Origin: Escherichia coli
GTDB taxonomy: Bacteria; Pseudomonadota; Gammaproteobacteria; Enterobacterales; Enterobacteriaceae
NCBI RefSeq assembly: GCF_003334785.1
Contig: NZ_QOWV01000009.1
Strand: one strand, 5' to 3'
Length of the DNA stretch: 64,000 nt
Below the pieces are notes generated by a model. The model did no database searches. It saw nothing but the letters and a program-made list of their open reading frames with translations, and was not told where the DNA came from. Shown here piece after piece: positions 17,347 to 17,390 of the stretch (positions are counted from its first letter, which is position 1; each line of letters opens with the position of its first letter). Made by a program: the position numbers and the translations under genes.

Positions 17347-17390
17347 TCCCTTAATTGTGCATAGTCGCAACAGCATGCACAATTAAGGGA
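17347..17390. repeat. Perfect inverted repeat (16-bp arms, 12-bp spacer) in the yajQ-panE divergent intergenic region
   Basis: TCCCTTAATTGTGCAT-AGTCGCAACAGC-ATGCACAATTAAGGGA; arms are exact reverse complements; not REP-like; no flanking T-run. Confidence 0.9.

Follow-up and report, generated by a model that had tools for sequence, protein, structure and literature searches.

Between the divergent genes yajQ and panE of Escherichia coli lies a long and perfect palindrome, and the question that this locus raises is what such an element does there: whether it works as DNA, under a regulator or a polymerase, or as RNA, through the hairpin that its arms would form once transcribed. It was picked out of a stretch of 64,000 nucleotides (hereafter the window) by an initial annotation made from the sequence, which took it for an operator of a dimeric regulator or a structure in a 5' untranslated region rather than for a terminator. 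The palindrome does exist and is functional, and what it does as RNA has already been published: the element is an RNase III processing site in the yajQ leader. In the present study, public transcript maps, published RNase III data and a comparison across Enterobacteriaceae were brought together, and they point to an account that we hold to be probably right, in which the palindrome plays two roles, as a hairpin cut by RNase III in the yajQ leader and as the core of two mirror-image promoters, and came to this place by a lineage-specific insertion.

Coordinates and data

The stretch is identical at this locus to NC_000913.3 (E. coli K-12 MG1655) in reverse orientation. All positions given below are those of the window; a position x of NC_000913.3 becomes 17435 - (x - 444515), and the offset for U00096.2/NC_000913.2, obtained from gene coordinates, is +776. 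The features of the locus are collected in Table 1.

Results

Geometry of the palindrome

The element had been described as two 16-bp arms set 12 bp apart, 44 bp in total, a description that is correct and yet understated, for the actual arms are 18 nt long and the whole spans 48 bp. That an arm of this length goes beyond chance was likewise borne out: with up to 3 mismatches allowed, the 18-mer occurs at only these two places in the 64-kb window, the same search on shuffles gave a mean of 0.04 matches, and 0/100 shuffles contained 2 matches. The palindrome is also the longest perfect inverted repeat of the window and the only one with arms of at least 14 nt lying within 60 nt of each other, the other long inverted repeats being 74-87% complementary and REP-like. 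With REP/BIME, the intergenic repeated palindromes of E. coli, it shares its intergenic position and the possibility of an RNA hairpin; it bears no resemblance, however, to the REP-like repeats of the window (16679-16730 and 50840-50903) and is A+T-rich and single copy, and its presence as a single copy in E. coli genomes agrees with the earlier view that it is not REP-like.

The flanking genes are arranged divergently, as claimed, with a spacer of 167 nt between them in E. coli. One of the distances first given has to be corrected: the 43 nt said to separate the palindrome from the panE Shine-Dalgarno sequence are in fact the distance to the panE start codon, and the Shine-Dalgarno itself, GAGGAGG at 17424-17430, is about 32 nt from the palindrome end. 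The statement that there is no T-run and no terminator held, in that no terminator-like site was found on either strand and the A+T-rich stem is followed by GCCTTATT or CGTCCTGG, not by a T-run. Among Rfam families none overlaps 17345-17392, even at E values up to 10. Folding predicts a hairpin on both strands, the energies being about -29 to -31 kcal/mol and the z-scores between -7 and -8; on the minus strand the 18 perfect pairs and their extensions make up about 23 pairs (-30.7 kcal/mol, z = -7).

Table 1. Features of the yajQ-panE intergenic region, in window coordinates
Feature	Position	Strand	Remarks
yajQ coding sequence	16776..17267	-	ATG at 17267
panE coding sequence	17435..18346	+	ATG at 17435
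Left arm TATCCCTTAATTGTGCAT	17345..17362		100% complementary to right arm
Right arm ATGCACAATTAAGGGATA	17375..17392		100% complementary to left arm
Centre AGTCGCAACAGC, 12 nt	17363..17374		In RNA, hairpin loop; in DNA, middle of the putative 17-nt promoter spacers
Small adjacent hairpin GTCCTG-CAC-CAGGAC	17329..17343		At +5 to +19 of the yajQ P2 transcript; replaces the ancestral panE -10
RNase III-dependent coverage dip, 'Intergenic (panE-yajQ)'	17377 (NC_000913.3 444573)	- (deduced)	In the right arm; PMC5371410, Table 1 and supplement
yajQ P3 transcription start, inside panE	17534	-	267-nt leader with the whole palindrome; Kim 2012 and Cappable-seq
-10 hexamer TACAAT of yajQ P3	17541..17546	-	Six nt upstream of 17534
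P3 leader/panE mRNA sense-antisense overlap	17397..17533		Source of 22-nt RNase III duplexes; PMC7373196, p19-capture table
panE-yajL transcription start	17390 (NC_000913.3 444560, reverse)	+	SMRT-Cappable-seq, Supplementary Data 2
yajQ P2 transcription start	17347..17348	-	Cappable-seq, U00096.2 443827 = 17347; SMRT-Cappable-seq, 444602 = 17348
yajQ proximal promoter P1	17292..17305	-	-10 TATTAT (17305-17300); start at 17292/3
-35-like TTGTGC, putative panE promoter	17355..17360	+	17 nt upstream of CACAAT; 3/6 match
-10-like CACAAT, putative panE promoter	17378..17383	+	Six nt between hexamer and start at 17390
-35-like TTGTGC, putative yajQ P2 promoter	17377..17382	-	Mirror, by sequence symmetry
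-10-like CACAAT, putative yajQ P2 promoter	17354..17359	-	Mirror, by sequence symmetry

RNase III processing of the yajQ leader

The most direct evidence on the function of the element comes from Gordon, Cameron and Pfleger (mBio 2017; PMC5371410), who compared RNA-seq coverage between the wild type and an rnc deletion and recorded an RNase III-dependent dip in the right arm of the palindrome, with 2-3 reads at 444573 in the wild type against 96 in the deletion. Their T7 templates, starting at 17222 (plus strand) and 17573 (minus strand), span the palindrome on both strands, and, as they report, purified RNase III cleaved the in-vitro transcripts of the spacer at sites confirmed by gel and 5' RACE. 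With RNase III present yajQ mRNA had a half-life of about 6 min, against about 3 min once rnc was deleted, for which the authors credit cleavage 'in the 5' UTR of yajQ', and in the deletion it was only yajQ whose stability changed. They also pointed out that the same hairpin is possible on both strands; the kit used in their work, TruSeq RNA, is apparently not strand-specific, and the strand of the in vivo cut was therefore deduced from transcription start site (TSS) maps. Elsewhere yajQ is cited as positively regulated by RNase III, by a mechanism left unresolved (PMC9032294).

A substrate of RNase III has to offer at least about 20 bp of double-stranded RNA within a real transcript. The palindrome hairpin has a helix of this length, and its transcription is attested by the P3 start in two datasets and by the 96 reads at 17377. 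It resembles the RNase III leader hairpins of adhE, gadE/ArrS, ahpC, pflB and yajQ treated in PMC5371410, with a long near-perfect stem of about two helical turns, and here likewise the hairpin sits in an untranslated leader, is cut by RNase III and leaves a longer-lived downstream mRNA. The site is one of the 11 verified in that paper and shows no difference in kind from the others; what that paper does not contain is the P3 start inside panE, the two mapped starts in the same DNA and the lineage-specific insertion, to which we now turn.

We also considered whether cleavage might unmask the yajQ ribosome-binding site by removing an antisense copy of the panE Shine-Dalgarno sequence, and did not adopt this explanation, the predicted effect being small. 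In folding of the long leader the yajQ Shine-Dalgarno pairs with the antisense copy at p about 0.5-0.6; across isoforms its mean unpaired probability is 0.21 versus 0.23-0.26, and that of the window from Shine-Dalgarno to start codon is 0.33 versus 0.48-0.50.

Origin of the RNase III substrate inside panE

TSS-seq by Kim et al. (2012, PLoS Genet) gives one yajQ start, at 443640 (NC_000913.2), with 29 reads, a 5' UTR of 267 nt and an upstream sequence that ends in CGCTACAATAAGGTTG; Cappable-seq (Ettwiller 2016) has a start at 443640 too, with a score of 35.9. In the leader from this start, P3, the palindrome occupies about +143 to +190, and the hairpin is retained when a 297-nt leader is folded whole. 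P3 is not reported by SMRT-Cappable-seq, a method that needs intact full-length primary transcripts, an absence to be expected if P3 transcripts undergo cleavage.

The P3 leader overlaps panE mRNA in antisense over the first ~145 nt of the latter, and traces of this overlap have been caught as duplexes: five sense/antisense 22-nt pairs were captured by p19 at U00096.2 443641-443777, that is, at 17397-17533 (Huang et al. 2020, PMC7373196). They fall exactly between the P3 start and the panE start, none lying beyond, and their edge at 17397 is 7 nt inside the panE start. The arrangement is like that of the divergent operons with overlapping 5' ends and RNase III-cleaved antisense duplexes described previously (PMC4161252, PMC7373196), such overlaps being found in 136/388 divergent operons (Conway et al. 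2014, PMC4161252), but differs from them in that the yajQ P3 leader adds an intramolecular hairpin substrate just past the overlap. Of the initial suggestion of a 5'-UTR structure, the part that concerns the 267-nt yajQ P3 leader is right; for panE it fails, because the palindrome lies upstream of the panE start at 17390.

Mirror-image start sites within the palindrome

Public start-site maps, whose use the initial annotation had proposed, place yajQ starts at 17534, 17347/8 and 17292/3 and a panE start at 17390. The most proximal yajQ start, that of P1, is given by Cappable-seq at 443882 (17292) and by SMRT-Cappable-seq at 444657 (17293), and the CATAATACC motif of this promoter is kept in 79/80 Enterobacteriaceae loci. 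The other two starts nearest the palindrome, 17390 for panE and 17347 for yajQ P2, are exact mirror positions about the palindrome centre at 17368.5. Either strand reads TATCCCTTAA-TTGTGC-(17 nt)-CACAAT-TAAGGG-A(+1), and between -46 and +3 the two starts share their sequence in all but the central 12 nt. From this we infer that the palindrome holds two identical, overlapping and divergent promoters, each arm serving as the -35 of one and the -10 of the other, and thus that the palindrome DNA itself, a role missed in the initial annotation, would be the core promoter for panE and for yajQ P2.

On both sides a 5'-triphosphate start is found 7 nt past the last base of CACAAT, as expected for sigma-70, and since Cappable-seq and SMRT-Cappable-seq take only 5'-triphosphate ends, the mapped starts are not RNase III products. 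The hexamers are weak, TTGTGC-17 nt-CACAAT matching the consensus (TTGACA/TATAAT) at 7/12 positions, which explains why a consensus promoter scan at a threshold of 9/12 returned nothing in 17150-17550. On the yajQ side, the P2 start was seen with two library chemistries. The Cappable-seq starts used here come from forward-strand rows, and the panE start comes from one dataset, SMRT-Cappable-seq; it has the same core sequence as P2 and agrees with the p19 duplex edge. A further panE-direction start upstream of the hairpin, e.g., from CATAAT at 17298-17303 (plus strand), is a candidate.

Symmetric DNA, divergent transcription and mutually exclusive polymerase binding are likewise features of the bidirectional promoters of Warman et al. 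(bioRxiv 10.1101/2020.01.31.928960; PMC12825309), a class with divergent starts 7-25 bp apart, most commonly 18 bp, around a shared -10. Membership in this class was rejected, the starts here being 43 bp apart and each -10 overlapping the other's -35; the element is an overlapping divergent promoter pair outside the Warman-type class.

Distribution and sequence conservation

The yajQ-panE arrangement is kept in 80/80 Enterobacteriaceae loci. Of 5,426 complete E. coli genomes, 5,425 have a single copy of the spacer, and in 5,352 of those 5,425 the 58 nt around the palindrome are identical. A perfect palindrome was seen only in Escherichia, namely in E. coli, one E. albertii record and one record titled E. 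whittamii, these being the Escherichia that the comparison covered. A homologous but imperfect version stands at the same place in the Citrobacter freundii complex (10 loci with nine distinct sequences), and the loci of Salmonella, C. koseri, C. sedlakii, C. amalonaticus, Enterobacter and Klebsiella have no palindrome. The spacer measures 167 nt in Escherichia and 174-175 nt in the C. freundii complex, 113-128 nt in Salmonella, C. koseri, C. sedlakii, C. amalonaticus and Enterobacter, and about 142 nt in Klebsiella. As for the conservation of the arms in close relatives, proposed at the outset as a check, they are perfect in Escherichia, imperfect in the C. freundii complex and absent in Salmonella, Enterobacter and Klebsiella. 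As judged from these sequences, the palindrome is an insertion common to Escherichia and the C. freundii complex.

Just left of the insertion point, a -10 of the form TATACT/TATAAT is kept in Citrobacter, Salmonella, Enterobacter and Klebsiella. In Escherichia this ancestral panE -10 (TATACT) is now TGCACC, within the small hairpin at 17329-17343, so that the old panE promoter has apparently been lost from Escherichia and transcription of panE now starts inside the insertion. Within the arms, ATTGT and ACAAT are invariant in 12/12 aligned Escherichia and Citrobacter sequences, other arm positions vary, and the spacing of -35 to -10 stays in the working range, at 17 nt in Escherichia and 18 nt in Citrobacter. 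The -10 of P3, TACAAT in Escherichia, is TGCAAT or TGCAGT in Salmonella, C. koseri and the C. freundii complex (a synonymous Cys codon), and since the relatives carry these in its place, P3 is probably specific to Escherichia.

Inside the 48 bp the sole change within Escherichia is a G>A in the loop at 17367, found in two loci (L001 and L089). The Escherichia arms show 0 changes at 36 positions against ~0.7 expected from panE divergence, which is thin evidence of conservation. Two common E. coli polymorphisms, at 17308 and 17325, both lie left of the palindrome, as do five of five E. albertii differences (P about 0.02).

A repeated element or MITE was considered as well and rejected, with one locus per genome in the 5,425 E. 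coli genomes; the '2 places' scored per record are the palindrome matching itself on the opposite strand. Five 'plasmid' matches were to records of 1.2-4.9 Mb, probably mislabelled chromosomes, and no palindrome was found in the true plasmids or phages searched.

The Citrobacter version and its strand bias

At the 18 pairs defined in E. coli, 88% of the Citrobacter cells are paired and three pairs are changed on both sides, giving a covariation score that was reached by 1/500 shuffles. Among the nine sequences, G.U cells number 25 on the plus (panE-sense) strand versus 2 on the minus strand, and G.U columns five versus one. The nine folds range from -21.6 to -28.6 kcal/mol on the plus strand and from -6.9 to -18.0 kcal/mol on the minus strand, so that 9/9 sequences fold better on the panE-sense strand, by 9-16 kcal/mol; in E. 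coli neither strand has such an advantage in folding (-27.1 and -29.9). The Citrobacter version seems to have been kept as an RNA hairpin on the panE strand, where, with TATACT just upstream, it would stand at the 5' end of panE mRNA.

Discussion

In the account that we consider probable, a yajQ-direction transcript from 17534, as published experiments show, carries the palindrome in its 267-nt leader, where it folds to a helix of ~21-23 bp and is cut by RNase III, leaving a processed yajQ mRNA about twice as stable, and the P3 leader and panE mRNA form duplexes that RNase III cuts as well. As DNA, the same palindrome would be the shared core of two mirror sigma-70 promoters, rightward from 17390 for panE-yajL and leftward from 17347/8 for yajQ P2; each arm being the -35 for one gene and the -10 for the other, the core would therefore admit one RNA polymerase at a time. 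On the evolutionary side, the comparison shows an insertion held by Escherichia and the C. freundii complex, which has displaced the ancestral panE -10 (TATACT) in Escherichia.

The strand on which the hairpin matters may be asked anew in view of Citrobacter, whose G.U bias and better plus-strand folds would suit a stabilising stem-loop in the panE 5' leader, cutting on the yajQ-sense strand being incidental. The panE transcript of Citrobacter, with TATACT just upstream, would begin at the stem base, and in E. coli the plus-strand CATAAT at 17298-17303 could drive a longer panE leader. Against this, the ancestral -10 is replaced by TGCACC in E. coli, the only mapped panE start, 17390, is downstream of the stem, the p19 duplexes end at 17397 with none listed in 17268-17345, where a long panE leader would overlap, and the rnc deletion altered the stability of yajQ only; the strand bias itself belongs to Citrobacter, the E. 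coli strands folding equally. We therefore regard a function on the panE-sense strand as unlikely for this locus. It is very unlikely, too, that an insertion left the palindrome behind as a neutral relic, perhaps formed where the ends of a small mobile element were joined, with promoter and RNase III activity as unselected by-products. The lineage-restricted distribution would fit such a relic, its invariance within E. coli is not statistically compelling, and the site does attract insertions: the 151-nt element of locus L070, with 19-nt terminal inverted repeats and about five copies per E. coli genome, lies at the same TATACTTA site, and IS3-family insertions occur in the spacer of two E. 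coli strains, one of them directly after CACAAT at 17383. The right arm and its flank are even marginally similar to an end of the 151-nt element (15-35/1000 shuffles score as high), but the left arm and the Citrobacter versions have no significant similarity to it, and E. coli has the palindrome in a single copy, with none in the plasmids and phages searched. A by-product would also hardly account for a hairpin kept through the sequence change of Citrobacter (three two-sided pairs; 1/500 shuffles), for the fact that in Escherichia, lacking the ancestral panE -10, the element has the only mapped panE start, or for a measured effect of cleavage on the half-life of yajQ mRNA (PMC5371410). Descent from the 151-nt element was accordingly set aside, only the right arm with its flank beating the shuffles, and is left as a lead.

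The remaining possibility is that a dimeric or tetrameric factor acting over yajQ and panE binds the palindrome as its operator, with MlrA of the MerR type as the best candidate and NtrC as the second. The dimeric regulator named in the initial annotation finds no support, in that no regulator is documented, the NtrC evidence amounts to a weak SELEX peak and the spacing is wrong for MlrA, and we judge the operator reading highly improbable. MerR-type proteins usually act at promoter spacers, and the dyad is indeed centred in the spacer of both putative promoters. Each arm carries AATTGTGCA, a 9-mer contained in the right half of the natural MlrA box upstream of csgD, which in MG1655 is AAAGTTGTACA-N12-TGCACAATTTT (L084, 458-491); inverted AAAATTGTRCA half-sites are thus present, with the same inverted orientation as at csgD and a 9-nt core identical to the csgD right half. 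Over its whole length, the half-site TTAATTGTGCA agrees at 8/11 positions with the half of the published MlrA consensus, AAAATTGTACA(12N)TGTACAATTTT as quoted in PMC9662190, and at 9/11 with the csgD right half AAAATTGTGCA. However, the gap between half-sites is 14 nt here and not the 12 nt of csgD, and it varies between genera, being one nt longer in Citrobacter; the distance from ATTGT to ACAAT, 18 nt at csgD, amounts to 20 nt in Escherichia and to 21 nt in Citrobacter, a drift that speaks against an operator because a promoter spacer tolerates it and a fixed dimer does not easily do so. The complementarity, moreover, spans 18 nt, well past a half-site and far beyond the csgD box, and the arm changes of Citrobacter keep RNA pairing on one strand, which is not predicted for a protein site. 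Chance alone would supply AATTGTGCA about 1.8 times per 64 kb, MlrA became a candidate only after the sequence had been seen, and a literature search found no paper linking MlrA to yajQ or panE. For NtrC, a genomic-SELEX peak of 41% falls in the spacer, weak and not followed up by its source; the site TGCACC-N5-GGTGCA with up to 3 mismatches was not found in 17268-17434, which has isolated TGCAC half-sites only. In its narrowest form, a MerR-type (MlrA-like) operator in both promoter spacers with one dimer switching yajQ P2 and panE, the proposal has a very slim chance of being correct. c-di-GMP is a ligand of YajQ homologues in other bacteria and MlrA is under the control of the c-di-GMP network, so that such an operator, if true, would tie yajQ to this network in E. 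coli.

Returning to the account of an RNase III hairpin and a mirror promoter core in one inserted palindrome, its central fact is published, and so little changes for the field; what the combined public data add is modest, namely the symmetry of the promoters, the origin of the RNase III substrate at P3 and the evolutionary history of the element. The ancestral panE promoter seems to have given way to a single short insertion, which also brought in a further yajQ promoter and a site of RNA processing. Should this be confirmed, the locus would offer a compact case of regulation rewired by a small inserted palindrome, and a convenient natural test case for telling selection at the DNA level from selection at the RNA level on a palindrome.

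Insertions and fixed ends of the yajQ-panE spacer

In Enterobacteriaceae, the spacer between the divergent genes yajQ and panE measures anywhere between 113 and 337 nt, a variation arising from several unrelated insertions at different points (comparison loci L022, L039, L046, L049, L057, L058, L063 and L069, together with the Kluyvera loci L064-L074). Despite these insertions both ends of the spacer are fixed: one holds the proximal yajQ promoter P1, the other the hairpin of the panE leader together with the panE Shine-Dalgarno sequence. Two independent IS3-family insertions were found in this spacer, at 345 in L083 (E. 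coli 13TMH22) and at 1196/2500 in L082 (the isolate in NZ_LT883142.1). IS1203 lies directly 3' of CACAAT (window 17383) and so separates the right arm of the 48-bp spacer palindrome from panE, and the second IS3-family element follows window position ~17322, with an AAC duplication.

In L070, a 151-nt element with terminal inverted repeats was inserted at the panE -10 (TATACTTA). About five related copies of it are carried by every E. coli genome, e.g., between qseG and qseE, and records from Klebsiella, Pantoea, Citrobacter and Salmonella contain related copies as well. The element may correspond to the RSA repeat, and it matched the Rfam family sX9 below threshold (31.8 bits vs. a gathering score of 44).

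Features in and around the yajQ-panE spacer (window coordinates unless a locus is named)
Feature	Position	Strand	Location or source
Imperfect REP-like palindrome	16679-16730		between yajR and yajQ
CATAAT overlapping TATTAT (yajQ P1 -10)	17298-17305	CATAAT +; TATTAT -	
Perfect small hairpin GTCCTG-CAC-CAGGAC	17329-17343		directly left of the palindrome
6-bp stem CACCCG-N9-CGGGTG	17404-17424		adjoins panE Shine-Dalgarno
yajQ P3 promoter, -10 TACAAT and TSS 17534	17534-17546	-	panE codons 34-37, antisense to panE
151-nt element, 19-nt terminal inverted repeats (GAGCCTATCCCAGTAGGC...)	L070 1285-1436		Enterobacteriaceae bacterium MGYG-HGUT-00110

The panE-internal promoter P3 drives a 267-nt yajQ leader. 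Its -10 is made possible in Escherichia by a synonymous TGT Cys codon of panE; where this codon is TGC, as in Salmonella, C. koseri and the C. freundii complex, the hexamer reads TGCAAT or TGCAGT. The small hairpin stands where the ancestral panE -10 was, a site occupied in other genera by GCGCTATACT, and in the yajQ transcript from P2, the start within the palindrome, it would lie 4 nt from the 5' end. Downstream of yajQ, in the region of the REP-like palindrome, a weak sub-threshold Rfam match to naRNA4 was recorded at 16720-16756.

At the yajQ end, the CATAATACC motif is retained in 79 of the 80 loci. Because the geometry of its overlapping hexamers fits the class of bidirectional promoters with divergent starts 18 bp apart, a candidate panE-direction start near 17310, directed by CATAAT, is possible. 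At the panE end, the counterpart of the leader stem in most Enterobacteriaceae is CACCTG...CAGGTG and a T.G intermediate was found in L006; therefore, one pair covaries across genera (T-A to C-G), which suggests, at the level of sequence comparison, that a panE mRNA leader structure is conserved across genera.
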